From Candidatus Onthoplasma faecipullorum (GTDB lineage Bacteria > Bacillota > Clostridia > Christensenellales > UBA1242): a stretch of 64,000 bases of DNA. The position numbers and the translations under genes are program-made. The notes under the pieces were generated by a model. That model was not told the DNA's origin, did not search any database, and saw only the letters and a program-made list of their open reading frames with translations. The stretch is taken from the NCBI GenBank assembly GCA_019120295.1, contig DWVI01000004.1:166758-230757 (forward strand). The letters run 5' to 3'. This document shows positions 4,203 through 40,158 of the stretch, one piece after another; position 1 is the first letter of the stretch; each line of letters opens with the position of its first letter.

Positions 4203-4389
4203 TAAGCACGAAAGCGAACTATTAAACGGTTACATAGATAAATGGGTTAAAGTTACATTCAAAGACGACACACGGTGTAATGGAGTGCTAAAGAGAGCAG
4301 ATTTTGGCTTTGGATATGTGATAAAAAGACCTGATGGAAATACTGTAAAATTTGCAAAATCTCTCGTAAAGAAGATAGAAAAAATATAG
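4192..4389 (+). CDS. hypothetical phage protein
   Basis: RBS GGAGGCGG; overlaps the upstream gene end. Confidence 0.5.
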   Translation: MKNDKHESELLNGYIDKWVKVTFKDDTRCNGVLKRADFGFGYVIKRPDGNTVKFAKSLVKKIEKI

Positions 4390-4397
4390 GAGATATT

Positions 4398-4547
4398 ATG
4401 TTAATTGCAATTGCTTTAATTATTATTGCTTGGGTTGTGGTTATGCCTTTATGGGTATCAATCACTCTAACAGCTCTTTCCGTGTTGCACTTTGTTATTA
4501 AAATTATTGTAATGCTTATTAGATTTTTCTCAGGAACAATAGATTAG
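4398..4547 (+). CDS. small hydrophobic membrane protein (49 aa, two predicted TM helices); below the ORF-track size cut-off
   Basis: AGGAG 5 nt upstream of the ATG. Translates as MLIAIALIIIAWVVVMPLWVSITLTALSVLHFVIKIIVMLIRFFSGTID. Fills an otherwise empty gap. Confidence 0.5.
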   Translation: MLIAIALIIIAWVVVMPLWVSITLTALSVLHFVIKIIVMLIRFFSGTID

Positions 4548-4555
4548 GAGGGGAT

Positions 4556-4906
4556 ATGAAAAGTAAACTTGATAAGAAATTTTCGGAAGTTACAAAAGAA
4601 ATGAAAGAGCGAGATTACAATACTCTTTACAGTGAATATACGTTAGCAATAAAAGCCAACAGGCAATTATCTGATGCTTTAGACAAAGAAAGGGAAGAAA
4701 ACGATCGGCTGCGAGTTTTAATATTTGCGTTTGTAAGAAATTCTGCTGTTGCTCCGACTGGTTTTATTTTAAAGAAGAGCGAGCAAGAAATTACTGACAA
4801 AACATTTGAGACAATTCAGGAAGCGGAAAAGATGATTGACTTTGATAAGATGAAAGACTTTATGAACTTAGCATCTGCAAAAGAAAATAGATTTGATAAG
4901 GAATAG
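4556..4906 (+). CDS. hypothetical phage protein
   Basis: RBS TAGGAGGGG. Confidence 0.55.
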   Translation: MKSKLDKKFSEVTKEMKERDYNTLYSEYTLAIKANRQLSDALDKEREENDRLRVLIFAFVRNSAVAPTGFILKKSEQEITDKTFETIQEAEKMIDFDKMKDFMNLASAKENRFDKE

Positions 4907-25361: not shown

Positions 25362-28031
25362 ATGGCTGCAACATATAAAACAACTAAAGACCTTTTGGAA
25401 AATAGAGATGTGTATAATCGTTATTATGGCAACTTCAGAGGGGTTGACTTTTCAAGCGATCACACACAAGTAAACGAACAAAGGTTAGCTTATGCAGTCA
25501 ATATGTATAGAGATTACCAGTCAGGACAAGGGCAAGCGTTAGAAACAATAGCAGGCTTTAGAAAGCGTGTAGTTTTGCCTGAAGAGGGAAATGTTTACGG
25601 CATTTTTGATTTTTCTCACAAAGACGAAAATAATAATGTTGTAAAAAAAGTTTTGATTCATTCAGGCAATAAATTGTATCTGTGGCATAACTATCCTAAC
25701 TCTATCAATGTTGTATTAAATACCACTATAACCGTGCCAGCTCCTACCTCAACAATTAACGGAACGCATACTTATAAACAAATTTTACCCGAGAATGTTG
25801 CTAAGGTTGTAAGTTTATCTAAGGCAAACGGAGAGGATCTGACTTTACTCTTAAGTTATAACGAAGAGACTCACGAACTAACTTATGCAAGTAGCAATTT
25901 GATTGAGGGAGAATCGCTGCATTTGTATTATAAGGAGGGCGTATTAAGTGTAGAAGACGCTCTATTTGACGAGATGAATACTCGTAAAAGTGCGTCTTTT
26001 ATTTTTAACAATAGACTATACATTATTGATGGAAAAAATTATTTGGTTTATGATGGTTTTAATCTAAAAGACGTGTTAGATAATGCCTATATCCCTACGA
26101 CTTATATAAATATAATTCCTGAGGGAGAAAATGCTGACATTGGAACAGAATACGAGCAAAGGAATATTTTAAGCCCGTATTTCAAAAGCACTTTTATAGC
26201 TGATGGAACAACAACAGAATTTCATTTAAACCAAAATATGCTTGATGATGTTACGGAAGTAAACGTTTATGGCGAAGTAAAGGTAAAAAACACAGATTTT
26301 ACAGTTGATCTTACAAACGGTGTTATAAAATTTACTTCTGCACCACCGAAACCTGAAAGCGTTGTTCAAATTATTGGTGGCGGCGGAGATTCTGACGTTT
26401 ATTATCCCGAAATGTATGCAGGCATAGAAATAACAGCAAAGAAAGCTTTTACAAGTGTGTCAGGTGTTACTGACGAAATGACGGATATATCAAAGCTTAT
26501 AACAAACTGCACAATAGTTGCAATTTATGATAATAGAGTGTTTTTATCAGGAAACCCTGATTATCCAAACCATATATTTTATAGCTCTATGAATACAACA
26601 GGATATGTAGATCCTACTTATTTTGGAGTTTTAAATTATATGCAGGACGGCGTTGGTATTGCTCCTATTACTGGAATGATGACTGTTGCAGATACACTGA
26701 TGGTTCTCAAAAACGATACACAACAAGATGGTTCCACTTACTTTCACACAGCTGTTGATACAGGCAACAATCTTCAACCTAAAGTCTATCCGTCATCTCA
26801 AGGCTTAAGTGGTATTGGTTGTTTAGGTGCTTGTGTAAATTTTCTTGACGATCCTATTTTTGTTTCACGTCTTGGCGTGGAGGCGGTAGGACAACTTTCC
26901 GTGAGATATGAGCGTGCAGTTGAGCATAGGTCAAGTCTTATAGATGCAAAAATTGTAAATATGGACTTAAGTTCTGCAGTTGTTGAAGAGTGGAACGGCT
27001 ATTTGCTCGTTTTAGTTGACGGGTGTATATTTTTAGCCGATAGTAGACAGAGATACACACACTCGATTGGTGTAAATCAGTATGAATGGTATTACTTGGA
27101 GAATATTGGAATTTATAAAAATCAATATTTGGAATACAGATATGCATCAAATATAGCTGAAGAGTTAGAAAATGCAAAAATACATTATTGTAGAAAGTGC
27201 AAAAAAGGACAAAACGAGTGTTCTTGTGGAGATGACGCTGAGATAGTTGAAGTTCCTATTACACTGGCTAAAGAAGTTTATTATATGGACGTCAACGAAA
27301 CAAGAGACCTTACAGGAGAAATTGTAAACGCTCCTGATGACAACGGGAAAGAATCTGCTAGAGTATTTAATGAGGGTGTAAATGTTGAGATAAATGGTCA
27401 GACATATACGCTTGGTGTTTACTACACAATTCACGAAGTTTACGATAAACTTACTGGAGAATTTGTAAAATATGAAGCTTATCTTTGTGAGGGAAAAGGC
27501 AACTATACAGGCGGACAGTTTAATAAGGCAATTGTTTTAAAAAATCTTTCTGATAACATATTTTTTGGAACAGAAAACGGAATAGTTTGCTCATTCAATT
27601 TTGACAAAAGAGATTCTTCAGGAGAAATTGGCTCGCAATGGTATACATTTGACGAGAGGACAATCTATTGTGGATGTGCAACAAAAATGGACTGTTGTGA
27701 TGTTCCTCATCTAACAAAAAACACGATTAAAAGGTCTACCGTAATAAAAACAAAATCTTTTAGAAATTCTGCAGTAAAGATTAAGGTTCGCACAAATAAA
27801 AACCCTTATAAGCAAATTGCAAGAATAAATAACGCACTATTCTCTTTTGAAGATATGGACTTCACTGACTTCACTTTTAACACAACGGAACAAAGCTTGT
27901 TTGCTGTCAAAGAAAAAGAAAAACAATGGGTAGAGAAACAATATTACATCTATTCAGATGAATATATGAAACCTTTTGCTTTATATTACGTTTCATTCAG
28001 ATACCAAATTATTGGGCGATTGAAAAATTAA
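25362..28031 (+). CDS. large tail structural protein (889 aa) with CxxC-x7-CxC knuckle
   Basis: Position. 'YCRKCKKGQNECSCG' resembles the portal insertion. Confidence 0.45.
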   Translation: MAATYKTTKDLLENRDVYNRYYGNFRGVDFSSDHTQVNEQRLAYAVNMYRDYQSGQGQALETIAGFRKRVVLPEEGNVYGIFDFSHKDENNNVVKKVLIHSGNKLYLWHNYPNSINVVLNTTITVPAPTSTINGTHTYKQILPENVAKVVSLSKANGEDLTLLLSYNEETHELTYASSNLIEGESLHLYYKEGVLSVEDALFDEMNTRKSASFIFNNRLYIIDGKNYLVYDGFNLKDVLDNAYIPTTYINIIPEGENADIGTEYEQRNILSPYFKSTFIADGTTTEFHLNQNMLDDVTEVNVYGEVKVKNTDFTVDLTNGVIKFTSAPPKPESVVQIIGGGGDSDVYYPEMYAGIEITAKKAFTSVSGVTDEMTDISKLITNCTIVAIYDNRVFLSGNPDYPNHIFYSSMNTTGYVDPTYFGVLNYMQDGVGIAPITGMMTVADTLMVLKNDTQQDGSTYFHTAVDTGNNLQPKVYPSSQGLSGIGCLGACVNFLDDPIFVSRLGVEAVGQLSVRYERAVEHRSSLIDAKIVNMDLSSAVVEEWNGYLLVLVDGCIFLADSRQRYTHSIGVNQYEWYYLENIGIYKNQYLEYRYASNIAEELENAKIHYCRKCKKGQNECSCGDDAEIVEVPITLAKEVYYMDVNETRDLTGEIVNAPDDNGKESARVFNEGVNVEINGQTYTLGVYYTIHEVYDKLTGEFVKYEAYLCEGKGNYTGGQFNKAIVLKNLSDNIFFGTENGIVCSFNFDKRDSSGEIGSQWYTFDERTIYCGCATKMDCCDVPHLTKNTIKRSTVIKTKSFRNSAVKIKVRTNKNPYKQIARINNALFSFEDMDFTDFTFNTTEQSLFAVKEKEKQWVEKQYYIYSDEYMKPFALYYVSFRYQIIGRLKN

Positions 28032-28046
28032 CTATAGGAGGATATT

Positions 28047-30422
28047 ATGTCATTAAAAAAGTTAGTAAACATAACGCCAGCAGAACTTAAGGCTAAGGGT
28101 GTTGTTTCTCTTGCAGATAGACCAAATGTTACGGCATCTTACGGAACAGGGGGGCTATCTCCAACACAACTTAAACTTTGGTTTGACCAACTGGCAACAT
28201 TTTTAGCTAAAAAGCTTAATATGATACAAGATACTTTAAGCGGGGAAGATGCAGCAAGTTATTTAAAACTTGATTTAAGTGGGTTGTATCCCGAGCTTGA
28301 GGGAGAAAATTTTAGTTATTCTTTACAAGATCTATGCAATTCTTTTATAGATGGGAAATTTGCAAGTTTTCTAAAATTATATGAATCTGCATCTGCAAGC
28401 GATTTAAAAAATCTGCAAACTATTATAAACGGAATTGCTCAAAATATAAGCGACGAGAATGAAGCGTTGCAAGAATTTAAAGCGTTACTTTCAAGCAAAA
28501 ATGGTGCGGCAAATATCGGCTTGCCAGATATTTACGATACCGAAACAGGTAAAAAACTGTCAGATTTTATTAGTGATATATTCAATTGTAATCTTGCAGC
28601 AAAAATTGTAATAGAAACTTACGGTTTTGCAACTTCTAACAAGACCGCTAAAGTAAACAAAACGCTCCAAACATATATCAACGAAGTTACTTCCGCTCTG
28701 CAGGCTCAAAATAGCTCTGTGCTGCTTGAAATGATAAATGATAGATATACTAAAGCTGAGACTGATACAAATATTTCACAGTCAATAACCACTGCAGTAA
28801 ATAACCATAACACAAACTCGTCAGCTCATAGTGCAATTATGGCTGAAAAATTTGACAAAGCAAACGTTATGCCTGAATTTGTTGGCGAAGATGTGAATAA
28901 TTCGGCTAAAGTAGCTTCAGCCGCCGCCTTAAAGCAAGTGATAGATGATATAAATGCAAGTATAGAATCTGTTGATGGAAAAGCAGATGTATCTCTTAAA
29001 AACGTAACTTATAACTCTACAACGGGTGTTATTATCTTCACGAAAACAAACGGGGAGACTATAACCTATGACTTGCCAAGTGAAAAAATATTAAAAAGTG
29101 GTGCAAGTTACTATGAGAGTTCAACAAAGAAGTTGCACTTAGTTTTAATGGACGATAGCGAAATTGTAATTGACGTTTCTAATCTTGTTGACGAATATTT
29201 TGGAGACGATGTTACAATAGAGTCTTATTCTGAAAATGGGCAAAAACATTTCCGTATAAAAACAACATATAAAAACACGCTTGACGGCTATGGAACAACC
29301 CTTGAAGACCACGCAGAAGAACTTGACAGGTTAGAGACAGCAAAAATAAACAAAACTGATATTGTTGATAACCTTACTTCAGACGTGTCTGATAAGCCAG
29401 TTTCTGCAAAACAGGCAAAGATATTAAAAGACGAAATAAGTTCTATAGATGGCGTGCTTAATGGAGCGTTTTGTGGAGCTGAATATAATCAAACTACAGG
29501 CAGTCTTATTCTGCACAAAACTGATGGTTCTACCACAACAATCAATTTTCCTCTTGAAAGCTTTGTTCAAGACGCCTCATTTAACACAGAAACAAATGTT
29601 GTTACACTTGTTGTAAAAAATGGGCAATCAGTATCTTTTGACTTATCAGCCTTAATTGACTATTACTATGGAGACGGTTCCACAATTGAAGTATATGACG
29701 ATCCTGAGGATAACTACAAACACAAAATAAGAGTAAAATCAGACTTTTTAAATCAAGTCAATACGGATATTTCTGCACTTGAAACAAGAATGGATGCTGC
29801 AGAAGAAGCAATAAGTTATCTTGAGAAAATTGATGAGTATGGCTCAATAGGTATTGCAGATGGCGAAACTATTACAATGGATATGGAAACAGGCGACTTA
29901 AGTGCTCGCAAATTGAAAATGCCTGATGGAACTATTGTTAGTATTCTTCCAATAAGTAAAACTAGTTATGATGCACTTACTACAAAAGATGCTAACACTT
30001 TATATATTATTGATGATAGTGGAAGGTTTGTTCTTGCATTTGGAAGTAAAACCTTGTTTGCAGGCGGTGTCAATGACACGGAAACAAGCGAATCAATTAC
30101 ATTTAGATTTATTACTCAGTCAGCATACGAGGGACTTGCAACCAAAGATAGCTCAAAATTATACATCATAAATAAAAATGGAAGCCTTGCATTTGCTTTT
30201 GGTAGTTTGTATCTTGATACCAATAGCGAGCTTATTACAGAAATGCAGACGAGTATAGACGAACTTGAAGCTGCAGTAGAGAAAAATAATAACTATATAG
30301 CATTATCTCATAGCACATTATCAGGCGAATCTAAAGTTATTTTATTTAGTAGTCTTTCCGCAACAGGACTTACTTTAACAAGTGGAACATTGCTATCGTC
30401 AGAGAGGTGCTTGCAGTGTTAA
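28047..30422 (+). CDS. tail fibre/spike protein with internally duplicated modules
   Basis: Two ~95-aa paralogous modules ('YNSTTGVIIFTKTNGETITYDLP...' and 'YNQTTGSLILHKTDGSTTTINFP...'). Two 'S.Y..L.TKD...LYII' fibre-type motifs. Confidence 0.6.
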   Translation: MSLKKLVNITPAELKAKGVVSLADRPNVTASYGTGGLSPTQLKLWFDQLATFLAKKLNMIQDTLSGEDAASYLKLDLSGLYPELEGENFSYSLQDLCNSFIDGKFASFLKLYESASASDLKNLQTIINGIAQNISDENEALQEFKALLSSKNGAANIGLPDIYDTETGKKLSDFISDIFNCNLAAKIVIETYGFATSNKTAKVNKTLQTYINEVTSALQAQNSSVLLEMINDRYTKAETDTNISQSITTAVNNHNTNSSAHSAIMAEKFDKANVMPEFVGEDVNNSAKVASAAALKQVIDDINASIESVDGKADVSLKNVTYNSTTGVIIFTKTNGETITYDLPSEKILKSGASYYESSTKKLHLVLMDDSEIVIDVSNLVDEYFGDDVTIESYSENGQKHFRIKTTYKNTLDGYGTTLEDHAEELDRLETAKINKTDIVDNLTSDVSDKPVSAKQAKILKDEISSIDGVLNGAFCGAEYNQTTGSLILHKTDGSTTTINFPLESFVQDASFNTETNVVTLVVKNGQSVSFDLSALIDYYYGDGSTIEVYDDPEDNYKHKIRVKSDFLNQVNTDISALETRMDAAEEAISYLEKIDEYGSIGIADGETITMDMETGDLSARKLKMPDGTIVSILPISKTSYDALTTKDANTLYIIDDSGRFVLAFGSKTLFAGGVNDTETSESITFRFITQSAYEGLATKDSSKLYIINKNGSLAFAFGSLYLDTNSELITEMQTSIDELEAAVEKNNNYIALSHSTLSGESKVILFSSLSATGLTLTSGTLLSSERCLQC

Positions 30423-30448
30423 AATATAATGAGCGTTCTCCAAAAGAG

Positions 30449-30817
30449 ATGATGGTTATAACAAAAGCAAAAGATTTGTTGGAACATAGCTTCAATATGA
30501 CGGCGAACACTGAAAGATTTCCTAAAAAATACAGATTTTCAATCGGTACAAGAATAGAAAATATATCAATAGAGATTTATGAAAATCTTGTAAGGGCAAA
30601 TGAGTATAATCTTACAGATCCAACAGAAAAAGCAAAACGTCTACAGTGCCAACAACAAAGTATTGTGTTGTGTAAATTACTAAATACTCTTATAGAGCTT
30701 GCTTATAAAATAAAATCAATAAAAATTTCTTCAAAGTCAGTTGAATATTGGTGTGGACTTGTTGTTGAAGTAAAACGAATGTCTGCAGCTTGGAGAAATA
30801 ACGATAAAAAACAATAA
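30449..30817 (+). CDS. avd: DGR accessory variability determinant (Avd, four-helix-bundle family)
   Basis: ~122 aa from the ATG at 30449. 'FPKKYRFSIGTRIENISIEIYENLVRAN' is typical of the Avd / 23S-IVS four-helix-bundle family. Sits directly upstream of TR and RT. Confidence 0.7.
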   Translation: MMVITKAKDLLEHSFNMTANTERFPKKYRFSIGTRIENISIEIYENLVRANEYNLTDPTEKAKRLQCQQQSIVLCKLLNTLIELAYKIKSIKISSKSVEYWCGLVVEVKRMSAAWRNNDKKQ

Positions 30818-30839
30818 GAATTTAGGGTATGTTCTGCTC

Positions 30840-30942
30840 CTCCTAACTCGTCGAACTCTCACAACGTTCGCAATGTCAACTCGAACGGTAACCTGAACAA
30901 CAACAATGCGTATAACGGTAACAACGGCGTGCGTCCGCTTTG
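30840..30942 (+). repeat. DGR template repeat (TR), 103 nt
   Basis: Non-coding. Has 30 adenines and is AAC/AAT-rich when read in the VR frame. Aligns without gaps to VR1 and VR2, with differences almost exclusively at TR adenines. Confidence 0.9.
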
Positions 30943-31094
30943 GTGGGTTATAGTCAGACCGAGTAGCGTAAAGCGAAAGCAGCACTCCACCAACAAAGGA
31001 GGACATATCCTTTCCGTAAGGATAAATACAAGATTACCGACACAAGCACATTATTTTATAAGGTGTAAGTTATTAGCGGTAAGGAGTCGAATAT
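30840..31094 (+). ncRNA. DGR template RNA (TR plus spacer up to the RT start)
   Basis: By analogy with the Bordetella BPP-1 DGR, where TR and the downstream spacer form the RT template/primer RNA. A local hairpin TATCCTT/AAGGATA lies at 31006-31024. Confidence 0.45.
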
Positions 31095-32150
31095 ATGCAG
31101 GAATATGAAAAAATTTATAATTTTGTGAGTTTATATAAAGCTTATAAAAAGGCTCGTTGTGGAAAACGCTGGAAAGAAGCAGCTATAAAATTTGAAATAA
31201 ACTTAATGGAAGCATTATTGCTTTTAAGTGAGCAATTAAAAAATAAAACCTATAGATTGTCTGAATATAATGTTTTCAAAGTTTATGAGCCTAAAGAAAG
31301 AATTGTTATGAGCAATAGTTATAAAGATAAGGTTGTGCAACATTCAATATGCGATAATGTTTTAGAGCCAATATTAACAAAAAGTTTTATTTATGATAAC
31401 TATGCTTCACAGGTTGGAAAGGGCACAGACTTAGGCTTGAATAGACTAAAAGAGTTTATGCGAAAATACTATTCAATCAATAAGTCAGCTGACGGCTGGG
31501 TGCTTAAGTGTGATATTAGCAAGTATTTTTACAACATTGACCACAACATTTTGAAAAAATTATTGAGAAAACATATATCCTGTCAAGATACATTATGGCT
31601 GTTAGATATGATAATAGACAGCACAGAGGGTGTTGGGATACCAATAGGAAATCAATCTTCTCAATTATTTGCTTTACTTTATTTAAACGGACTTGATCAT
31701 TATATAAAAGAGAAATTGCAGATAAAGTTTTACGGAAGATATATGGATGATTTTTATTTAATACATAAAGATAAAAATTATTTAAAATATTGCCTCCAAA
31801 AAATTAAAGAAAAAGTTGAAGAACTTGGACTTACATTAAATTCTAAAACATCTATTTCTCCTCTTAAAAATGGAATTGATTTTCTTGGTTTTCACACTTA
31901 TTTAACAGAAAGCGGAAAGGTTATAAGAAAACTTAGACGCTCTTCAAAGACAAATATGCGTAGACGGCTTAAAAAGTATAAAAGTCTGAATACGCAAGGG
32001 AGATTGCCAATGAAACGTATTGAGTGCTCCTATAACAGTTGGAAAGGACACGCAAAACGTGGAAATTGCTATCATTTAATACAAAAAATGGATAGCTTAT
32101 ATAATAGTCTTTTCAAAAAGGAGGAAAATAAAAAATGTCTCAAACGTTAG
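31095..32150 (+). CDS. DGR reverse transcriptase
   Basis: 'IGNQSSQLFALLYLN' matches the DGR-RT signature (I/L)GxxxSQ. 'GRYMDDF' matches the YxDD catalytic box. 351 aa; adjacent to TR. Confidence 0.9.
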   Translation: MQEYEKIYNFVSLYKAYKKARCGKRWKEAAIKFEINLMEALLLLSEQLKNKTYRLSEYNVFKVYEPKERIVMSNSYKDKVVQHSICDNVLEPILTKSFIYDNYASQVGKGTDLGLNRLKEFMRKYYSINKSADGWVLKCDISKYFYNIDHNILKKLLRKHISCQDTLWLLDMIIDSTEGVGIPIGNQSSQLFALLYLNGLDHYIKEKLQIKFYGRYMDDFYLIHKDKNYLKYCLQKIKEKVEELGLTLNSKTSISPLKNGIDFLGFHTYLTESGKVIRKLRRSSKTNMRRRLKKYKSLNTQGRLPMKRIECSYNSWKGHAKRGNCYHLIQKMDSLYNSLFKKEENKKCLKR

Positions 32151-33892
32151 GAAGTTTGCCTATAGGAGCAAAAGTAAAAGACGCAAACACAAAATTCTTA
32201 GGCGAACCTATTGTTTGGCTTAAGGCGGATAAAGATCATACAGATTATCCTACAAATAGCACAACTCTTATCACAGAGAAGATTATAGCTCTAAGAGCTT
32301 TTGATGCTAAAGAGCCTAACAATACAGATTCAAATAGACAAAGTTATGGAAATAACAAATATTCAGTTTCAAATATTGACCAATGGTTAAACTCTGATGC
32401 AGCAGCAGGGCAATGGTATACTGCAAAACACGAAGCTGATCAGGCTCCAACTACTGTAAGCACTCACGTATCCGCAAACACATACACAGAAGATGCAGGC
32501 TTTTTAAACGGTTTTTCAAGTTATTTCAAATCTCAGTTGTTAGAAACAACACTAAAGGTTGCTCTTAATACTGTAACAGATGGCGGAGATTACGAATCTA
32601 TAACTCGTAAAGTATTCTTAGCTTCACGTGCAGAAACTTTTGGTGCTGCAGAAAATAGCGTTATGGAGGGAAGTTTACTATCAATCTTCTCAGAGAACAC
32701 AAATGCCTGTAGAATTGCTTATGTAACGCAAGCGTGCGTGGATGATAGTGATTATTCTTCTGACCCTGCCGCTGGTGCAGCGTGGTATTGGTGGTTAAGA
32801 ACTCCTAACTCGTCGATCTCTCGCTACGTTCGCTATGTCTTCTCGGGCGGTTACCTGTTCTACAGCTATGCGTTTAACGGTTTCTACGGCGTGCGTCCGC
32901 TTTGTAACCTGTCATCTGATATTCTGGTGTCTGATACTGTTGACGAAGACGGTTGCTATGTTATTCAATTGCCGCCTGAGGCTCCTGATACAATAAATGT
33001 AAAAACGCCTATATATTGCGATCCTGATTATAACACAGGAGGAATAGAGGGAGGTAAGGCAGAAGTGTCTTGGAGTGCTGGTTCAAATTGTAAAACATAC
33101 AAATTGGAACGCTCTATAAACGGCGGAGAATTTTACGAAATTTATGTCGGAGACAACTTAGCTTACGAAGACGTCATTACAGACAACATAAATACGGTTC
33201 AGTATAGGGTTGCTGGCTTGTCAGGAACGACTTCAACAAGCTATACGACTTCAAGTGTTGTTGTGGTGCAGGACAATTATCCACCATTTATTTCAGGAGA
33301 TAACACTGCATTTGGAGATGTCGCAACAAGAATTAAATATAATTACACAGTGTATGATGGCGATGATGTAAATGTAACAGTTAAAGAATATGTGAATACT
33401 ACTTTAATCAAAACATATACAGCGACAGGTTCTGCAAATAACGTATTTGAAATTGACCTTGAAACGTGGAACGGACTTAGCACAGGAGATAATTATATAA
33501 AAATTGAAGTTGAAGATGATGACGGCTCAACTGCCACTCAGACAAAGCACTTTAATAAAATTGGCGGAGTTATTGAATTTGTCTATGAGCCTTTTGGTTC
33601 GTCAATATCAGCAGTTCCTAAGGCAATAAATGTTAAATTAGATTTAAAAATGCCTTTAGATGCATCAATTGAAGTCTTAGCAACTAATAATGCAAATGAT
33701 ACTCAACCTGTATGGGATGATATTACTACTGCTGCATTAAGCGGAACAAATCACGTATTTTCAAATACTGCAAAACAACAAGGTGTAACTTATTATAATG
33801 TAAAAATTAAAGTAAAAATCAATAGGAACGGTGCAGACGGCGAAATCAAGTTATATGGTATGAAATGTCAACTTGACTGCAGTTTGACTTAA
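32135..33892 (+). CDS. DGR target protein (receptor-binding candidate): N-terminal domain, CLec-like VR-bearing segment, then FN3/Ig-like C-terminal domains
   Basis: Contains VR1. 'AWYWWLRTP....YGVRPL' is a C-type-lectin-fold-like VR scaffold. 'KAEVSWSAGSNCKTYKLERSINGGEFYEIY...VQYRVAG' is FN3-like. The start overlaps the RT stop. Confidence 0.8.
   Translation: MSQTLGSLPIGAKVKDANTKFLGEPIVWLKADKDHTDYPTNSTTLITEKIIALRAFDAKEPNNTDSNRQSYGNNKYSVSNIDQWLNSDAAAGQWYTAKHEADQAPTTVSTHVSANTYTEDAGFLNGFSSYFKSQLLETTLKVALNTVTDGGDYESITRKVFLASRAETFGAAENSVMEGSLLSIFSENTNACRIAYVTQACVDDSDYSSDPAAGAAWYWWLRTPNSSISRYVRYVFSGGYLFYSYAFNGFYGVRPLCNLSSDILVSDTVDEDGCYVIQLPPEAPDTINVKTPIYCDPDYNTGGIEGGKAEVSWSAGSNCKTYKLERSINGGEFYEIYVGDNLAYEDVITDNINTVQYRVAGLSGTTSTSYTTSSVVVVQDNYPPFISGDNTAFGDVATRIKYNYTVYDGDDVNVTVKEYVNTTLIKTYTATGSANNVFEIDLETWNGLSTGDNYIKIEVEDDDGSTATQTKHFNKIGGVIEFVYEPFGSSISAVPKAINVKLDLKMPLDASIEVLATNNANDTQPVWDDITTAALSGTNHVFSNTAKQQGVTYYNVKIKVKINRNGADGEIKLYGMKCQLDCSLT
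32802..32904 (+). repeat. DGR variable repeat VR1
   Basis: 18 differences from TR over 103 nt, all at TR adenines. A 23-nt A-free 3' end is identical to TR (IMH-like). Confidence 0.9.
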
Positions 33893-33903
33893 GGGGAGGC
33901 GAT

Positions 33904-34359
33904 ATGAAAATGGAAATCAAGTTATTAAATAACAAAAAAGGTTTTATTTTAACTCGTCAACCTGAAGTAGTGGAAGATAAACTTTATATAACATTCGCAA
34001 ATGCTCCTAAAAATGCAACAGCAATTTTTGAAAACGCAAACGATTCACTATATAGGTTATTACAAGATAATTGTTGCGAAATTCCTGAAAATTTTTTGAT
34101 AGGGGAAATTAAAATAACCGTTGCAATTTTAAATGGCGAAATAAACTCTCCAAAATGGGAGTGTGAGGGCATTAAGGCGTCAAAAACAAAAGATGGAAAT
34201 ATTCTTATTGCTCCAAATGATATGAATTTGCCTGAGAAAATGGTAGAAATTCAACTTGAAATGCAAGAGATACAAAACAATTTAAGCATACTATCGAAAA
34301 ACTATTCGGAGCTTGAAACTAAATTGACCAAGCTGCTTGAGGGATACGACATAACATAA
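33904..34359 (+). CDS. hypothetical phage protein
   Basis: RBS GGGGAGG; C-terminal coiled coil. Confidence 0.55.
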   Translation: MKMEIKLLNNKKGFILTRQPEVVEDKLYITFANAPKNATAIFENANDSLYRLLQDNCCEIPENFLIGEIKITVAILNGEINSPKWECEGIKASKTKDGNILIAPNDMNLPEKMVEIQLEMQEIQNNLSILSKNYSELETKLTKLLEGYDIT

Positions 34360-34374
34360 GGAGGTAAATAAGTT

Positions 34375-35058
34375 ATGAAGAAAAAAGTATCTTTAAGTAT
34401 CTTGGCTTGCTTTGCAATCATTTTATGCTTTGGAGTGTTTTTGGGAACTTCTGCTCTAAATTCACAAACAAGCATATTAACTGTATCTGCAGAGACAGTT
34501 GTTTCAACAAGCGAAAACATAGATGAAGAGCAAGAAATTATTCCTGAAGAGACAGAAGTGGAAAATAATACTTTTTTTGGTAGAGTTTGGGAATGGGTTG
34601 TCGCTAATAAAACTGAACTTATTTCTGCTCTTGGAAATATTATTCTTGCAGTTTTATTTTTAATAAACTATATCAATTCAAAAAAGAAGCTTACCAAGAT
34701 AACAAGTGGGGTTTTGACCACCTCAAGTTCTCAAGCAGATGTTGTAAACGTTGTAAATAAACTTATTGACGGATATAATAAACTTGAAGATATTACAACT
34801 AAATATGCTAACACTGAAGATGAAAAATATAAGGCGGTAGCAAAGTCTATTGTGCAAACAAAAGCTATTCTTGAAATTTTGATTACTGTATACGCTAACT
34901 CTAAAAATATTCCACAAGGCGTAAAAGATTTAATCAACTTAAAATATGCAGACGCCTTGAAGCTGATAGGAAATGACGAACAACTAAAACAAACTTTAGA
35001 TAACGAAATGGAAAAAGAAAACGCTGAGGAACAATCAGGCACGCAAACGGAGGAATAA
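34375..35058 (+). CDS. membrane/secreted protein (N-terminal signal or TM helix plus an internal TM helix)
   Basis: 'MKKKVSLSILACFAIILCFGVFLG' and 'ISALGNIILAVLFLINYI'; RBS AAGGAGG. Confidence 0.55.
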   Translation: MKKKVSLSILACFAIILCFGVFLGTSALNSQTSILTVSAETVVSTSENIDEEQEIIPEETEVENNTFFGRVWEWVVANKTELISALGNIILAVLFLINYINSKKKLTKITSGVLTTSSSQADVVNVVNKLIDGYNKLEDITTKYANTEDEKYKAVAKSIVQTKAILEILITVYANSKNIPQGVKDLINLKYADALKLIGNDEQLKQTLDNEMEKENAEEQSGTQTEE

Positions 35059-35059
35059 A

Positions 35060-35464
35060 ATGAAAAATTCCACCAAAGGAAAGATTTGCAAAATTTCTGC
35101 ACTTTGTATAGACGTAGCGGCTCCTTTAGCAGCAACAATCTCTCAATTCCCTGTATGGGTTGATAGAAGCTCTTCTGCAACAATCTCGGGTTTATTCTTA
35201 GTATTTGCCTTTTTGTCTGCTATTCCATTTATGAAACAAATTAAAGCATATTTAAAATCGCCGTCAGCTTGGTCTATGTGGTGCATCTTATTTGTTCTTT
35301 TAATAGCTCTCAGAAACATTATAGACGAAATGGTTATTATTTGTTTGGTTGGTCTTATAGCAAATGCTTGCGGTGCAGGGCTTCATAAAATTGGGGAAAA
35401 TATTGAAAGTAAGCCCGATCCTGAAACTCCTGAAGACTCTGAAAATAATGGAAGTGAGGTGTGA
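35060..35464 (+). CDS. multi-pass small membrane protein (holin candidate)
   Basis: 134 aa with ~4 hydrophobic helices and a charged acidic C-terminus; located in the late-operon tail. Confidence 0.35.
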   Translation: MKNSTKGKICKISALCIDVAAPLAATISQFPVWVDRSSSATISGLFLVFAFLSAIPFMKQIKAYLKSPSAWSMWCILFVLLIALRNIIDEMVIICLVGLIANACGAGLHKIGENIESKPDPETPEDSENNGSEV

Positions 35465-35467
35465 TAA

Positions 35468-36550
35468 ATGGAACCTATAAAAAATGATAACAGAAAAGAT
35501 GATCCTGTAGAAAGACTTGGTAAAACACAAAAGAGAGTGGTAAAGTCGTTATTTAATAATATGGCTTTAATAATTGGTATGTTTATCATTATTGTTGTCA
35601 TAGTTGTCTTTACAACTGATGTTAAAATATCAAGTGCTTTACATTGGGCTGAAATTGGTCTCACGTTCTTTATTCTTCTGTTTTGCTCGTATTCTATGTA
35701 TGTGAATTTTGTTGGAAGTGGAACTCGTGCAGGAAGGGCAACTAAAATATATATAGAAACTCTTGAAAAATATGAGACTATCAAGAAAAAAATAATTGAT
35801 AACAAGCATCAAAACAGAATTGGAGAATTTTGCAGATATTATATATCGGAAGAGCTGAAAAATACTAAAAATTCAATTCTGTCAGAGGTTGGAATAGATT
35901 TTGAAGATTATACAGAAAAATATATTGGAAAAGACGAGGAAACTTTGCGGACAGACGAAAGCTTGTCTAAAGCACAAATTGCGGCTATTTGCAAAGCAAA
36001 CTCTATTCAGCCAGTAAAATTAACTCCTGAAATGATTTTTAAAAGGGGTAGAGGCAACCACAGAAGAAGTCCGTTGGGAATCAAGCCTGAAACACGCAAA
36101 AATATTGCCTATGGAACAAAATTTATCTATACCTGTGTAACCTCACTACTTACAGGCGTAATTTTATTTGATGTTATTATCGATCCATCTTGGGCGACCT
36201 TTGCTGCTTGTTGCCTGAAAGTCTTATTGGTTGTTTTAAACGGTTTCTTTGGCTATAAAATGGGCTATGAGAATATAACAGTGCATACTGTTGATTATAT
36301 GAGCGACCAAATAGACTTAATGCAGCAATTAGAACAATATGTCGAAGCTCATCCTCAAATTGTTAAAATCGAAGATAGTGTAGCGGTTGAGGCTTCAACT
36401 GAAGAAACGCCAGCTCGAGAAGAACAAGAGATTTTAGTGGAAGAAGTTCCACAGGATAAAACAACTAAAGAGGAAGAAGAAAAACCAAGTGAAGCGGTAA
36501 AAGAAAATACAAAATTAGAATTGTTAGAAATAAAAAATATTGAAGAATAA
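35468..36550 (+). CDS. membrane protein (about 4 TM helices) with acidic C-terminal tail
   Basis: Hydrophobic segments 'MALIIGMFIIIVVIVVF', 'IGLTFFILLFCSYSMYV', 'TSLLTGVILFDVII' and 'CCLKVLLVVLNGFF'. Confidence 0.55.
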   Translation: MEPIKNDNRKDDPVERLGKTQKRVVKSLFNNMALIIGMFIIIVVIVVFTTDVKISSALHWAEIGLTFFILLFCSYSMYVNFVGSGTRAGRATKIYIETLEKYETIKKKIIDNKHQNRIGEFCRYYISEELKNTKNSILSEVGIDFEDYTEKYIGKDEETLRTDESLSKAQIAAICKANSIQPVKLTPEMIFKRGRGNHRRSPLGIKPETRKNIAYGTKFIYTCVTSLLTGVILFDVIIDPSWATFAACCLKVLLVVLNGFFGYKMGYENITVHTVDYMSDQIDLMQQLEQYVEAHPQIVKIEDSVAVEASTEETPAREEQEILVEEVPQDKTTKEEEEKPSEAVKENTKLELLEIKNIEE

Positions 36551-36551
36551 T

Positions 36552-36585
36552 AAAAAATAAGGTGCACTAAACACCTTATTTTTTT
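36552..36585. terminator. bidirectional rho-independent terminator
   Basis: AATAAGGTG (36556-36564) pairs with CACCTTATT (36572-36580). It is flanked by an A-run on one side and a T-run on the other. Confidence 0.7.
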
Positions 36586-36586
36586 G

Positions 36587-36810
36587 AGGTTACAAAGCGG
36601 ACGCACGCCGTAGCGACCGTAAAATGCATAGTTGCTGCTCAGGCTACCGTTCGAGTAGACAAGGCGAACGATGCGAGAGGTCGACGAGCTAGGAGTTCTT
36701 AACCACCAATACCACGCTGCACCAGCGGCAGGGTCAGAAGAATAATCACTATCATCCACGCACGCTTGCGTTACATAAGCAATTCTACAGGCATTTGTGT
36801 TCTCTGAGAA
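36587..36810 (-). pseudogene. truncated inverted duplicate of the DGR target gene (115 bp upstream flank, VR2, 6 bp downstream)
   Basis: 36696-36810 is the exact reverse complement of 32687-32801. An in-frame TAA lies immediately upstream. There is no ATG and no RBS, only an internal GTG. Past the duplicate, the frame runs antisense into the 35468-36550 gene. Confidence 0.7.
36593..36695 (-). repeat. DGR variable repeat VR2 (second, remote, inverted)
   Basis: The reverse complement aligns without gaps to TR. There are 16 differences at TR adenines plus one G-to-A. It differs from VR1 at many adenine-templated positions. Confidence 0.85.
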
Positions 36811-36812
36811 AA

Positions 36813-37238
36813 TTAACTGTTATTTTTGTCTTGTTTTTGATTATCTTCAGCTATTTGAGTGCCTATATATGCTCTCATTTTTGCGTCTTGAAGCTGTTTT
36901 TCTTTATTTTCCTGCATAATTTTGTGTAAAACTTGCATTTGTTCAGGAGATGTTTCCTCTTTAACTATTGATTTGCCTGTTTTTTCTAAATATTTTTGCT
37001 CAATCTTATCAGGGTCTGCATATTTAATTATTAGTATTTCAGCAATTATACTTAAAATTGTCATTACAGCGAACACGATTCCAACAACTCCACCAGTAAC
37101 GCCGCAGGCTAAAACAATAAACGACGGAATATTAAAAGCTATCCAAGTGAAAATAAAACCAACGATTCCACTCTTCATTAGGGAAGTAAACGTCGCAAGT
37201 TTGCTCTCATATCTGTTAAATTCTATTCTTAAACGCAT
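36813..37238 (-). CDS. small membrane protein (two TM helices plus charged coiled C-terminal tail); moron-like gene opposite to the phage late genes
   Basis: AAGGAG 6 nt upstream of the ATG. Hydrophobic segments 'GIVGFIFTWIAFNIPSFIVLACGVTGGVVGIVFAVMTILSIIAEILII'. The stop codon is 2 nt from the VR2-bearing duplicate. Confidence 0.65.
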   Translation of the reverse strand: MRLRIEFNRYESKLATFTSLMKSGIVGFIFTWIAFNIPSFIVLACGVTGGVVGIVFAVMTILSIIAEILIIKYADPDKIEQKYLEKTGKSIVKEETSPEQMQVLHKIMQENKEKQLQDAKMRAYIGTQIAEDNQKQDKNNS

Positions 37239-37274
37239 AAATAACTCCTTTTACAGACACAGTTATTTTATGCG

Positions 37275-37309
37275 AATATAAAATAAAAGTGCCCTCCAAT
37301 GGAAGGCAC
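37275..37309 (-). terminator. leader terminator/attenuator hairpin upstream of the 36813-37238 gene
   Basis: 21-nt near-perfect palindrome GTGCCCTCCAATGGAAGGCAC (37289-37309), followed on the minus strand by TTTTATTTTATATT. Confidence 0.5.
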
Positions 37310-37434
37310 AGTCCTATACTAAACAAACCTTCCATTGTTGCGGCACAATTTTCCTTATGTAAGGTGGAAGTGTTTGTAGATAGGCAAAAAGCCACTCCTC
37401 ACATAAGGAAATTATTTAATTGTGTCGCATTAAA

Positions 37435-37463
37435 AGGATAACACAATTATCAAAAAATGTCAA
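37435..37463 (-). promoter_or_regulatory. sigma-70/sigA-type promoter for the structured leader
   Basis: On the minus strand, TTGACA (37463-37458), a 17-nt spacer, then TATCCT (37440-37435). The predicted start is at the base of the 37339-37429 hairpin. Confidence 0.4.
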
Positions 37464-37543
37464 ACAATTTAAAAAATTCAAAAACAAAGGGTATTGAAAT
37501 TTTGAAAATTATTTTATATAATTCAAGTGTGAGGTATCAAAAG

Positions 37544-38599
37544 ATGAAAGGAATGAGATATACAGCAAGACAAAAACGGAAAGCTTTACAGCTGTGGCAA
37601 GATGAAAATGAAGATATTTTCAAGGTGTGCAGCAGGTTCAAGTGCACAGAACGTTCTCTTTGGAGGTGGAAAGCATTATATGACGGAACTTTAGAGAGTT
37701 TAGAAAATAAATCGTCAAGACCTTTAACTCCGCATCCAAATTCCCATACAATTGAGGAAAAGACGGCTATTATAAATCTTTTTAAGAAAAAGCCTGATAT
37801 TTCATATAATGAGGCTTTTGGTATTTTGCGAGCCAAAAATGCGTATAAAAGGAGTTATGGAGGGTTTTATAACTTTATTTTAAAAAACAATATCCGACCG
37901 CATAAGTTAGTGGAAAAGTATATTCCTCAGCCTTATGAAACGCCTGAAATGCTTGGTGTAAAATGGCAAATGGACGTTAAATATGTTCCTGTAGTGTGCT
38001 ATAAAGGTGTAATGATACATTATGACGATAATAAATATTATCAATACACAATGATAGACGAAGCAACAAGAGAAAGATTTTTATATCCATACAAAGAGCA
38101 TAACATACAATCTACGTTAGATTTTGTTAAACGAGCAATTGCGTATTTTGGTTATGCTCCAGCTATTATTCAAACAGACAACGGCTCTGAATTTACCAAT
38201 ATTAAAAAACCAAACCAAAAAGAGCCTAAGATTCACGCCTTAGATATATTATTAAATAAATTAAATATAAGACATCAACTAATAAGAGCATATACTCCAA
38301 GACAAAACGGCAAAGTAGAACGCTCTCATAGAAGCGATCAGGAAAGTTTTTATAATCATTTAAAATTTAAAACTTATAATGAACTGAAAAAGAAAATGAT
38401 GGCGTGGAACATTACATACAACAATCGTCCGCACAGCTCGTTAAGAAATAGAGAGGGTAAACGAGTATGGTGGTCGCCACTGGAGAAAAGGGCAGACTTA
38501 CTCAATCTTCTTGAAGAGAAGAAAGAAGAATTTGACAAAGTTAGATTTTTAAAGAAAGAAAAATGTAAAACTATTCGGCAAATTTATAAAGTTGCGTAG
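37544..38599 (+). CDS. DDE transposase, integrase-core (rve) family with N-terminal HTH
   Basis: 'WQMDVKYV', 'IQTDNGSEFT' and 'YTPRQNGKVERSHRS' form the D, D, E triad context. ATG at 37544 follows GAGGT. Confidence 0.8.
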   Translation: MKGMRYTARQKRKALQLWQDENEDIFKVCSRFKCTERSLWRWKALYDGTLESLENKSSRPLTPHPNSHTIEEKTAIINLFKKKPDISYNEAFGILRAKNAYKRSYGGFYNFILKNNIRPHKLVEKYIPQPYETPEMLGVKWQMDVKYVPVVCYKGVMIHYDDNKYYQYTMIDEATRERFLYPYKEHNIQSTLDFVKRAIAYFGYAPAIIQTDNGSEFTNIKKPNQKEPKIHALDILLNKLNIRHQLIRAYTPRQNGKVERSHRSDQESFYNHLKFKTYNELKKKMMAWNITYNNRPHSSLRNREGKRVWWSPLEKRADLLNLLEEKKEEFDKVRFLKKEKCKTIRQIYKVA

Positions 38600-38622
38600 A
38601 TTTTATAAGATTGAGGGCGAAA

Positions 38623-38650
38623 TTCCCCCTGCAGGGGGAATAGGTTTTTT
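38623..38650 (+). terminator. rho-independent terminator
   Basis: TTCCCCCTGCAGGGGGAA palindrome followed by TAGGTTTTTT. Confidence 0.7.
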
Positions 38651-38839
38651 ATTGTCTAAGCATAAAAATTATTCAGTTTTCTTTGACTTTACTTTAATAA
38701 ATTAGTAAAATATATCAATAAATTCCTGTGTTTTTAGGTGTTTTTAGCCTCAAAAACAACTTTTCTCAAAAAAAATAAAATTTTTTCAAAAAAATACTGA
38801 AAAATGTTTGACAAATCTCAAAATAATCGTAATTTATTA

Positions 38840-38868
38840 TTGACAAATTGATTTCACTGTTATATAAT
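38840..38868 (+). promoter_or_regulatory. consensus sigA promoter TTGACA-17-TATAAT abutting the ATG at 38876 (leaderless candidate)
   Basis: -35 at 38840-38845 and -10 at 38863-38868. The ATG is 8 nt after the -10 and has no SD sequence. Confidence 0.6.
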
Positions 38869-38875
38869 TACGCGT

Positions 38876-39316
38876 ATGACAAATGAAATTATAGAACAAT
38901 ATAGATTAAAATTAATTGAAAAGTTTGGAGATCCAACACCGCGCGAAGTTGATGGCAAAACATACCGCTTTATAAATGAAAATTTAGATGAATTTAATGA
39001 AATAGTAGCGCAACTAAATGAAATTGAAGTTTTATTAAACAAACCTATTTCAGATGATGTGCTTGAATTAATTTGTATTTATTGTATGAAAGCAGACACT
39101 GCGAGAATTAAAAACATAAGAAAAAGTTTGCAAACATTAAAGAAAGGTTTTTCATACAATTATTATGCAAAAAAGAATGCCTGCGAATTATTTAAAGACC
39201 TTGAAAAAGATAAGGAAATAATAAAAGTTAACATTTTAAAACTAATCAATTATTTCCATGCACATATAAATACTTCCTTGGATAGTTATTCAAAACAACA
39301 TCATCCAATTTTTTAG
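38876..39316 (+). CDS. hypothetical protein (146 aa)
   Basis: ORF directly after a consensus promoter; terminator hairpin downstream at 39357-39392. Confidence 0.6.
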   Translation: MTNEIIEQYRLKLIEKFGDPTPREVDGKTYRFINENLDEFNEIVAQLNEIEVLLNKPISDDVLELICIYCMKADTARIKNIRKSLQTLKKGFSYNYYAKKNACELFKDLEKDKEIIKVNILKLINYFHAHINTSLDSYSKQHHPIF

Positions 39317-39356
39317 AAAAAACTTATAAAATTAAGTTGTTATTAAAATTTATAAA

Positions 39357-39392
39357 AAGAATGAGAAACTTTAAAGTCATTCTTTTTTTTAT
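39357..39392 (+). terminator. rho-independent terminator
   Basis: AAGAATGA (39357-39364) pairs with TCATTCTT (39377-39384), followed by a T-run. Confidence 0.65.
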
Positions 39393-39471
39393 TTTTGTTG
39401 ATATGACGTATAAGATTATTCTTGACACATCTTCACGCATTTTGTTACTATAAAATTCAAGGGGAATAAAA

Positions 39472-40158
39472 ATGGATAAAAAATATTATGAAGCGTATGA
39501 AGACCGCTACATTCAAGTGCACCAATCACAAAATAAACCTTGGGCCGGGGACAAGCCAAGCCCCACAATCGAAAAATTGCTTAAAAAATATGGCGTTAAC
39601 TCTAATTCGTCTATTTTAGAGATTGGTTGCGGTGAAGGACAAAATGCCATAAATTTACTTAAAAAGCAATATAACCTTGAAGCGAGTGACGTTTCCAATG
39701 AAGCAATTCGTTGGTGCAAAGAACAGGCAAGGCTTGCCGGGGTGGACGAAAATAGATTTTTTGTTATGGACATTCTTAACAATAAATTAGATAAAAAATA
39801 CGATTTCATTTTTTCAGTTGCAGTTTTACATATGCTTGTGGACGACAATGATAGGCATGAATTTTTTAACTTTGTAAGAAATCATTTGAAAGACGAAGGA
39901 AAAGCATTTATCATTGTAATGGGCGACGGTAAAATGACGCGTAAAACGGACACAACAAAAGCGTTTGACCTTGCAGATAGACCTTTTGAAGATAAAACAA
40001 TTCAAGTGGCAACAACGTCGTGCCGTATGGTCACTTGGGACACATATCTCAAAGAATTTAAAGAAGCAAAATTAAAAGTTATAGACCATTTTCTAGATAA
40101 AACCATTTCAGGTTTTGACGTTTCAATGGTTGCAGTTGCAGAAAAAGAAAGCACTTAA
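39472..40158 (+). CDS. class I SAM-dependent methyltransferase
   Basis: 'ILEIGCGEGQNAINL' is motif I (E/DxGxGxG); 'DFIFSVAVLHML' is motif II/III-like. Confidence 0.75.
   Translation: MDKKYYEAYEDRYIQVHQSQNKPWAGDKPSPTIEKLLKKYGVNSNSSILEIGCGEGQNAINLLKKQYNLEASDVSNEAIRWCKEQARLAGVDENRFFVMDILNNKLDKKYDFIFSVAVLHMLVDDNDRHEFFNFVRNHLKDEGKAFIIVMGDGKMTRKTDTTKAFDLADRPFEDKTIQVATTSCRMVTWDTYLKEFKEAKLKVIDHFLDKTISGFDVSMVAVAEKEST

Follow-up and report, generated by a model that had tools for sequence, protein, structure and literature searches.

We describe here a diversity-generating retroelement (DGR) of a prophage on a stretch of 64,000 nt from Candidatus Onthoplasma faecipullorum (contig DWVI01000004.1); this whole stretch is called the window, and all coordinates without a contig label are window positions. 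The DGR rewrites a variable region (VR1) in the gene of a lectin-like target protein from a template repeat (TR), and an inverted, partial copy of that gene with a variable region of its own (VR2) lies nearby. In our opinion VR2 is probably a silent snapshot of a past VR1 allele, and exchanges with the active VR by homologous recombination, in the form of both inversion and conversion. We base this on the anatomy of the locus, on the stasis of VR2 against the turnover of VR1 in related genomes, on the presence of both orientations of the block between the two copies, on chimeric VRs, and on the concerted evolution of the two repeat arms. A preliminary description of this DNA had proposed that a single DGR is accompanied by a functional VR and by an inverted copy that is truncated and has no promoter, and this our analysis supports. 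We disagree with its view that the two copies were diversified independently.

Anatomy of the locus

30407-30817, plus strand: avd, the DGR accessory gene, 136 aa (phrog_3206 'Avd protein of DGR', E=9e-25)
30840-30942, plus strand: TR, version A, with 30 adenines; a direct repeat with VR1 and an inverted repeat with VR2
31095-32150, plus strand: DGR reverse transcriptase (RT), 351 aa (phrog_1423, E=4e-133; Pfam RVT_1, E=5.5e-17)
32135-33892, plus strand: target gene, 585 aa (Pfam DUF6273, C-type-lectin-like, E=1.6e-32; phrog_10993 'Hoc-like head decoration', E=2e-134, full length)
32683-32910, plus strand: left arm (U 32687-32801, VR1 32802-32904, TAACCT 32905-32910)
32911-36586, no strand: invertible block S, 3676 nt (3' part of the target, 981 nt, aa 259-585, and four genes)
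36552-36584, both strands: bidirectional terminator hairpin at the right end of S, after VR2 (terminator scan; DNA fold -13.1 kcal/mol, z = -4.3)
36587-36814, minus strand: right arm, the silent copy (TAACCT 36587-36592, VR2 36593-36695, U 36696-36810)

The locus as a whole has what defines a DGR: an RT and Avd pair, TR/VR differences that are specific to adenines, and a variable VR in a lectin-like protein. The avd product also matches Pfam bAvd and NCBIfam DivGenRetAVD, in both cases under their cut-offs. In the target, DUF6273 covers aa 41-260 and is followed by about 325 aa of 'Hoc-like' C-terminal domains; VR1 corresponds to aa 223-256, which places it at the end of the lectin-like domain and in the middle of the protein. 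In most DGR targets the VR is C-terminal. Since VR1 is internal to its target, any cis element 3' of VR1 must be coding sequence. The target has 2097 homologues, almost all of about 580 aa, and the internal VR1 architecture is kept across about 2000 of them.

A repeat search of the window gave an inverted repeat of 228 nt (32683-32910 and 36587-36814) with 91% complementarity and a spacing of 3676 nt. Each arm consists of a segment of 115 nt, which we call U, then a VR of 103 nt, then TAACCT. The preliminary description had read 36587-36810 as a reverse complement copy of 32687-32910, with 115 identical bp upstream of the VR and a conserved TAACCT; direct comparison of the arms bears this out, the repeat in fact being slightly longer. 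U is identical in both arms, and the differences between them are confined to the VR. TR and VR1 have 18 mismatches, all 18 at TR adenines. VR2, read on the minus strand, has 17 mismatches to the TR, of which 16 are at adenines, as had been reported, and one is a G>A at TR position 71. The two VRs differ from each other at 20 positions. In relatives, too, the VR1 alleles all differ from the TR at adenines, and non-adenine changes are rare.

The duplicate was said to be unable to encode a normal target, and we agree. On reading the sequence of the right arm we found no start codon, no Shine-Dalgarno (SD) sequence and no fusion to the adjacent gene ORF141, so that VR2 does not belong to an expressed coding sequence. 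Its frame has a TAA at 36822-36820, four codons ahead of the arm, and the first start codon in that frame is a GTG at 36759; the frame then stays open antisense into a 360-aa gene, up to 36355. The stop of ORF141 (36815-36813) is in a different frame. Expression of VR2 by readthrough of ORF141 was considered and rejected, since a stop is met after 13 codons. A -1 frameshift from ORF141 was rejected as well, because the only place where it could occur lies between two TAAs and has no slippery sequence. Independent assemblies of relatives (L004, L015 and L048) show the same arrangement, and it is not an assembly artefact of the window.

VR1 and VR2 share their GC-rich 3' end and TAACCT, and the sequence beyond differs. 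With a third VR (VR3), VR1 shares CTG..ATCTGA.AT downstream, a stretch that is also coding homology. VR3 was seen in L017 (2912-3010, minus strand), in L018 and in L035 (18091-18193); its match to the TR begins at about nt 26 and reaches the end. The protein that carries it, close to the C-terminus, is a small DUF6273 protein of 218-219 aa encoded in the phage early region just past the transposase gene rve; VR3 is absent from the window and is expected to the left of the window start. Given that VR3 differs between L017 and L018 at adenine sites, we take it to be active.

Two independent disruptions of the target gene were also encountered. In L005/L025, a 28-nt deletion at about 7335 (window 32774-32815) removes the boundary of U and VR1 and splits the target into ORFs of 277 aa and 307 aa; the prophage is otherwise identical and its target is pseudogenised. 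In an ENA contig of 46,226 nt, the target is split into an N-terminal ORF of 153 aa and an ORF of 409 aa (P0122 and P0132).

Variation of the two VRs in populations

Contigs of relatives from ENA, NCBI and Logan were reached by exact-protein look-ups; L-numbers denote these contigs, P-numbers denote proteins, and a02 and a15 are VR alleles. A megablast of 28000-40000 against 50,697 phage records gave no match, and neither the whole arm nor the VR 3' end with TAACCT had an exact-pattern match in JGI metagenomes or IMG/VR. Short-read contigs mostly break within U, which leaves contigs of about 4 kb that hold S plus both VRs. We therefore name each VR by the end of S that it adjoins: the S-left VR (TAACCT-GTCATC...) is in the position of VR1, and the S-right VR (TAACCT-CAAAAA...) is in the position of VR2.

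At the S-left VR, at least 13 alleles occur in near-identical genomes and differ at TR adenines, whereas the S-right VR has one allele (a02) in 12 samples with near-identical assemblies; the exceptions to it are either recombination chimeras or a 2-nt variant. The TR is identical in all close relatives of the window phage. Among 10 aligned cluster members of the 585-aa protein, variation is focused on the VR residues. The hypervariation at adenine sites that is expected of an active DGR target was not found at VR2 in the consensus contigs of these near-identical genomes. Hence the earlier conclusion that both copies have undergone separate mutagenic homing is not supported, VR2 having remained constant in the face of repeated VR1 turnover. 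It is further contradicted by the backbone of a non-resident TR in the VR2 position of L037, L039 and L046 and by the likeness of VR1 to VR2 in L048, to which we now turn.

Between the TR of the window (TR-A) and that of L039 (TR-B, 8706-8808) there are 8 differences; in other respects these phages have 95-97% identity. In L039, where TR-B is resident, the S-left VR has no non-adenine mismatch to TR-B; the S-right VR has 6 to the resident TR-B and none to TR-A. The S-right VR of L037, which has TR-A, is a mosaic with a B-type 5' part and an A-type 3' part and has 3 non-adenine mismatches to the resident TR. The two arms of L046 belong to different TR types, and the copy in the VR2 position mismatches the S-left-type TR. 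In these three contigs, then, the VR2-position copy has 3-6 non-adenine mismatches, which match another TR version, and in the window VR2 has 1. The non-adenine positions of VR2 thus do not follow the resident TR, in the window as in L037 and L039. The silent VR copies keep the backbone of a non-resident TR, as fossils of TR evolution or of recombination between lineages.

L048 is a contig of 40.9 kb, 98.6% identical and in the standard orientation, and its VR1 is identical to its own VR2 at 99 of 103 positions. Because the two are so alike, the adenine pattern of VR2 is explained by copying from a VR1 allele. Apparently this pattern was inherited from such an allele, and the silent copy was not re-templated afterwards.

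Recombination between the arms

The preliminary description had advised a search for both orientations of 32911-36586 and for chimeras of VR1 and VR2, and public assemblies contain both. In L039-L045 and L047, S is reversed between the same flanks. One of the two new junctions is seen in L039 (a scaffold of 34.8 kb), L040, L041 and L045, which read RT, target N-terminus, U, VR and the right end of S and then continue with all S genes in the opposite strand. The other is seen in L042-L044 and L047, which read rve, ORF141 or its 139-aa allele, U, VR and the left end of S, followed by the C-terminal part of the target and the next gene on the strand of ORF141. A junction of the type rve-ORF141-U-VR-S-left also stands at the end of L046. 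Inverted junctions come from 9 samples and at least 3 lineages, and standard junctions from about 12 samples. The inverted ones were produced by four assembler types (SPAdes-style scaffolds, MEGAHIT k87, MEGAHIT k141 and Logan). Orientation is uniform within each lineage: 3 of 3 P0127 contigs are inverted, and all long contigs of the window type are standard. Further, a fusion of 335 aa had been predicted beforehand for the flipped state, and P0123, a protein in the 90% cluster of the VR2 ORF, matches it exactly.

As read from the sequence, the inverted target would be a protein of 315-335 aa, with a complete DUF6273 that carries the VR of the resident arm and a tail of 57-77 residues derived from antisense. 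The length of this tail depends on the lineage, with totals of 335 vs 315 aa. Inversion would also make the 'Hoc-like' C-terminal part, with U and VR ahead of it, and the four S genes follow ORF141 on its own strand. In the lineage of L042-L044 a TTG start overlaps the stop of ORF139.

Two chimeric VRs were found. The S-right VR of L009 equals VR1 of L008 over nt 1-57, including two non-adenine substitutions, and equals VR2 from nt 47; here the silent copy received sequence from the expressed one. In L045, the S-right VR is identical to VR1 of L011 over nt 1-33 and to VR2 from nt 34. VR1 of L033 differs from VR1 of L032 at two 5' sites only, both of which match VR2. This pattern and that of L048 are compatible with transfer from the silent to the expressed copy, as they may be with the reverse. 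In L037, both arms share 3 derived nt relative to both arms of the window. The arms evolve in concert.

The crossovers that we reconstruct lie in U, at VR nt 33/34, at nt 47-57 and near the VR 3' end, with no fixed site. Those phage ORFs that lie in the window (the early region outside it is only partly seen) gave no match to a serine or tyrosine recombinase, and the sole recombinase found among them is an IS481-like DDE enzyme. RecT and YqaJ are encoded in the early region of the phage. Given the varying crossover points, the lack of an invertase gene and the presence of RecT/YqaJ, general homologous recombination is more likely than a site-specific switch.

The 6.2-kb contig L046 has ORF141-type flanks of two different alleles on either side of S (1-266 and 3943-4594). 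It represents either a strain mixture or a palindrome that formed when two phage genomes recombined.

Distribution and origin of the arm

The arm is present in a clade of at least 95% nt identity, which comprises the window, L037/L038, L039, L042, L046 and L048. It is absent from L035/L036 (72% nt identity), where there is an AT-rich spacer, from nd12 and L002 (about 40% aa identity), and from 8 IMG/VR relatives (53-72% aa identity); in this set, two contigs stop before the position expected for the arm. Conservation of the duplicate in related prophages, which had been named as a point to check, is thus limited to this clade, and such confinement indicates a recent, lineage-specific duplication. 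A recent origin weighs against an old conserved function, and a newly useful one is compatible with it. The duplicate may, as had been suggested, be a relic of recombination with a related phage.

Explanation of the inverted copy and its alternatives

It seems reasonable to suggest the following scenario. The DGR, consisting of avd, TR and RT, rewrites VR1 at the end of the DUF6273 lectin-like domain of the target. In a recent ancestor of the clade, a 228-bp piece of the target would have been duplicated in inverted orientation, directly behind the terminator of the gene that closes the late operon. VR2, being untranslated and apparently no retrohoming target, would have kept its adenine substitutions as a frozen former VR1 allele. 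Since VR2 shares with VR1 the GC-rich 3' end and TAACCT, the cis requirement that it lacks is probably in the next 10-20 nt, which differ. The arms would recombine by general homologous recombination, presumably through RecA of the host or RecT/YqaJ of the phage. Non-reciprocal events would homogenise the 115-nt part and shift VR tracts between the arms, and reciprocal crossovers would flip the 3.7-kb block. With each flip, the target would be shortened to a lectin-domain protein with a nonsense tail, and its C-terminal part and the four genes would come to lie behind ORF141. This process probably has no selected function.

Several points weigh against this scenario. The population evidence consists of consensus contigs and not of reads, so that low-level homing at VR2 or flipping within a sample would be invisible. 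Nothing found in the downstream flank of VR1 accounts for the escape of VR2 from homing: the flank gave no significant fold (z = -1.5), no DGR-style hairpin and no clear cis element. The alleles of the VR2 family (a02, a15, L045, P0130) and VR1 of L048 differ mutually at TR-adenine sites only, as occasional partial homing might produce. Some contigs that are short or have low coverage may be mis-joined where they cross the repeat of 115 nt. Finally, the inverted junctions are common and the inverted genomes look otherwise intact, as the gene lengths of L039 indicate, which is unlike a purely deleterious accident.

An alternative view is that the arms are a selected recombinational device. VR2 would then archive a successful allele, to be returned to the expressed gene by conversion or double inversion. 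Inversion would decide whether the phage makes a virion-anchored receptor-binding or decoration protein of 585 aa or a short form that is lectin only, and it would detach the four S genes from the late operon and attach them to the ORF141 unit on the lysogen side. We find this doubtful as a whole. The preliminary description had offered an archival or donor cassette for VR1 and an inversion switch among possible roles; recombination, both orientations and chimeras are in agreement with such roles, but the evidence does not show selection for a function. It is true that both orientations recur in at least three lineages, that the VR of the full-length target in L048 is only 4 nt away from the silent copy, and that VR1 of L033 departs from that of L032 only towards VR2. 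It is also true that all S genes are in sense behind ORF141 once inverted, that the TTG start overlaps the ORF139 stop in the L042-L044 lineage, and that the truncated form retains the whole of DUF6273, the same phage also having a 219-aa DUF6273 target that stands alone. However, there is only a single cassette, the arm is missing in all examined relatives outside the clade, the alternative C-terminus is the antisense of another gene and varies in length, the crossover points vary without a dedicated recombinase, and L048 does not tell the direction of transfer. The boldest version, in which a DGR is coupled to a recombinational memory and switch that recalls a stored variant, toggles between a virion-anchored and a free lectin and re-wires four genes to a lysogen-side promoter, is in our judgement unlikely; if true, it would add recall to an otherwise memoryless hypermutation system.

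It is very unlikely that the DGR also homes into VR2 as a true second target and diversifies it independently of VR1, perhaps at a lower rate. The adenine bias of the TR-VR2 differences (16 of 17), the retained GC-rich 3' end and TAACCT with a hairpin a few nt downstream, and the difference of alleles a02 and a15 at one adenine site would all suit such a target. On the contrary, VR2 is identical in 12 samples with VR1 turnover, it has non-adenine mismatches to the resident TR in L037 and L039, and VR1 of L048 nearly equals its own VR2. Besides, those changes of VR2 that can be traced are recombination tracts of known VR1 alleles, including non-adenine substitutions in L009. Most unlikely, as we see it, is that VR2 is a dead relic with at most rare gene conversion, and that 'inverted' contigs are mis-joins made by assemblers through the perfect repeat of 115 nt. 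The repeat is indeed longer than k in most assemblies, many contigs break within U, and some inverted contigs are short or of low coverage (L040, L041, L043-L045; the coverage of L042 is 3.4). Yet mis-joins would hardly yield inverted junctions in 9 samples from four assembler types, with a uniform orientation within lineages and with both junction types of the inverted state recovered; L039 crosses the entire S in reverse, and the chimeric VRs of L045 and L009 hold junction k-mers that must be in the reads.

Relation to known systems

Phage Mu (G/Gin), phage P1 (C/Cin) and plasmid shufflons each have an invertase of their own, of the serine or tyrosine type, that acts at short fixed crossover sites and gives two coding alternatives. 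As in the tail-fibre inversions of Mu and P1, there are inverted repeats inside a phage host-recognition gene, several genes are flipped together, and the C-terminal part is exchanged behind a constant N-terminal part. Here, however, both orientations occur in populations with no invertase found and no fixed crossover site, the crossovers vary along the 228-bp arm, and the alternative C-terminus is antisense. The inverted repeats of plastids and the segments of herpesviruses show flip-flop isomerisation between long inverted repeats by general recombination. The coexistence of both segment orientations between long repeats that evolve in concert is common to those cases and ours, but here inversion breaks a gene, and the repeats hold a hypermutated tract.

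Neisseria pilE/pilS and Borrelia vlsE, the latter with inverted silent cassettes, achieve antigenic variation by gene conversion from silent cassettes. Our locus shares with these systems (for the Neisseria pilin system see PMC3547852) an expressed locus, a promoterless partial copy, and mosaic transfer of segments by homologous recombination. It differs in that the window and its relatives have a single silent copy instead of a repertoire, that the content of this cassette is DGR-made, and that transfer is documented mainly from expressed to silent (L009); we found no evidence of a dedicated mechanism that initiates transfer between the arms. The behaviour of the arms thus resembles both G-segment inversion of Mu and silent-cassette conversion, yet fails the defining features of both.

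Among DGRs, the closest known systems are those of the Faecalibacterium phages Lelie, CP11, Roos and Pioen, gut prophages with DUF6273 targets (PMC11792537). They have the same avd/TR/RT set, adenine-specific TR-VR differences, a VR at the C-terminal end of DUF6273, and large and small DUF6273 targets that share one TR, which correspond here to the 585-aa protein with VR1 and the 219-aa protein with VR3 (L017, L018, L035). The text of that paper, as far as searched, does not mention a silent inverted partial copy, a downstream inversion or VR chimeras. The Hoc-like C-terminal region of our target is related to proteins of FP_Mushu and FP_Brigit. In Treponema denticola, DGR loci have truncated or 'suspicious' VR-bearing fragments that are too short for a normal target and lie beside intact targets of the same TR (PMC4891356). 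These are dispersed fragments and annotation oddities, for which no inverted pairing with an active VR, inversion or exchange is reported. Nor did text searches of two large DGR surveys (PMC8144416; bioRxiv 10.1101/2024.11.15.621889) bring up inversion or gene conversion of VR copies.

In our view the locus is useful as a natural control for what defines a DGR target site. Two VRs have the same 115 nt upstream, the same GC-rich 3' end and the same TAACCT, but just one of them is rewritten. The determinant would thus be sought in the next few nt or in the local context. The locus also shows that recombination of the ordinary kind, between an active and a silent copy, can reshuffle diversity made by a DGR, which yields chimeric VRs and possibly brings old alleles back into use. 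As silent copies record earlier TR versions, they would offer a rare view of TR evolution and VR turnover in wild gut phages. There is a practical side to it as well: a perfect inverted repeat of 115 nt breaks short-read assemblies, and a VR-based estimate of DGR activity would go wrong at such loci if it took each TR-like repeat for a target.

Block S, neighbouring genes and the prophage

33904-34359: S gene, 151 aa, no predicted transmembrane segment, soluble (transmembrane scan)
34375-35058: S gene, 227 aa, membrane protein (transmembrane scan)
35060-35464: S gene, 134 aa, membrane protein (transmembrane scan)
35468-36550: S gene, 360 aa, membrane protein (transmembrane scan)
36813-37238, minus strand: ORF141, a small protein with two transmembrane segments, whose would-be transcript passes through the silent arm
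37457-38599, plus strand: rve, an IS481-like DDE transposase (Pfam rve, E=1.8e-19; NCBIfam IS481, 174 bits, below cut-off)
38805-38820, plus strand: right end of the prophage, terminus ...TGTTTGACAAATCTCA; host or other DNA from 38821

The repeats had been described as bracketing a 3.7-kb block of four membrane-protein genes. The size is right, with the correction that the block also holds the 3' 981 nt of the target; the membrane assignment holds for the products of 227, 134 and 360 aa and fails for that of 151 aa. None of the four S genes has a family match in profile searches of the Pfam/PHROG/NCBIfam type. A genome contig scan gave as its sole match a 3-kb contig of a Gastranaerophilales metagenome-assembled genome (MAG), which has 96% nt identity to part of the block and ends short of the arms.

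ORF141 has a promoter-like site at 37463-37435, and between this site and its start codon the leader contains a GC-rich terminator-like hairpin with a T-run (37289-37309, minus strand), which may attenuate transcription of ORF141.

Homology to L016, L017, L018, L021 and L023 breaks at 38820, and each of them has its own flank: a host methyltransferase, the L33/SecE/NusG operon, a radical-SAM gene, another host site, or phage early genes. The sharp stop of homology together with the differing flanks identifies 38820 as the prophage end and indicates that the phage integrates at several sites. The IS481-like DDE transposase is probably the integrase of the phage. The pattern suggests transposase-mediated integration of low specificity, possibly through a circular junction as in L017 and L018. 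We also considered that ORF141 and rve are an ordinary insertion sequence (IS) beside VR2. This was rejected, as there is no inverted copy of 38805-38820 in the window, and the unit runs on into the arm in all five flanking contexts, being the end of the phage.

Upstream of the DGR are genes for terminase, portal, major head, adaptor and tail proteins, and a giant ORF of 3191 aa; to the right of 38820 are the host genes DnaD/DnaI-like, CysS and RelA. In our reading the DGR belongs to a temperate phage of about 44 kb, whose portal and adaptor matches are podovirus-like (SU10-type), and the genome into which it has integrated resembles a Gastranaerophilales MAG.

The giant ORF of the structural region spans 12042-21617, and a further giant ORF (46824-55616, 2930 aa) lies in host DNA. 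In the early-to-middle region of the phage, 2038-2709 encodes a DUF5131 / radical-SAM-like protein.

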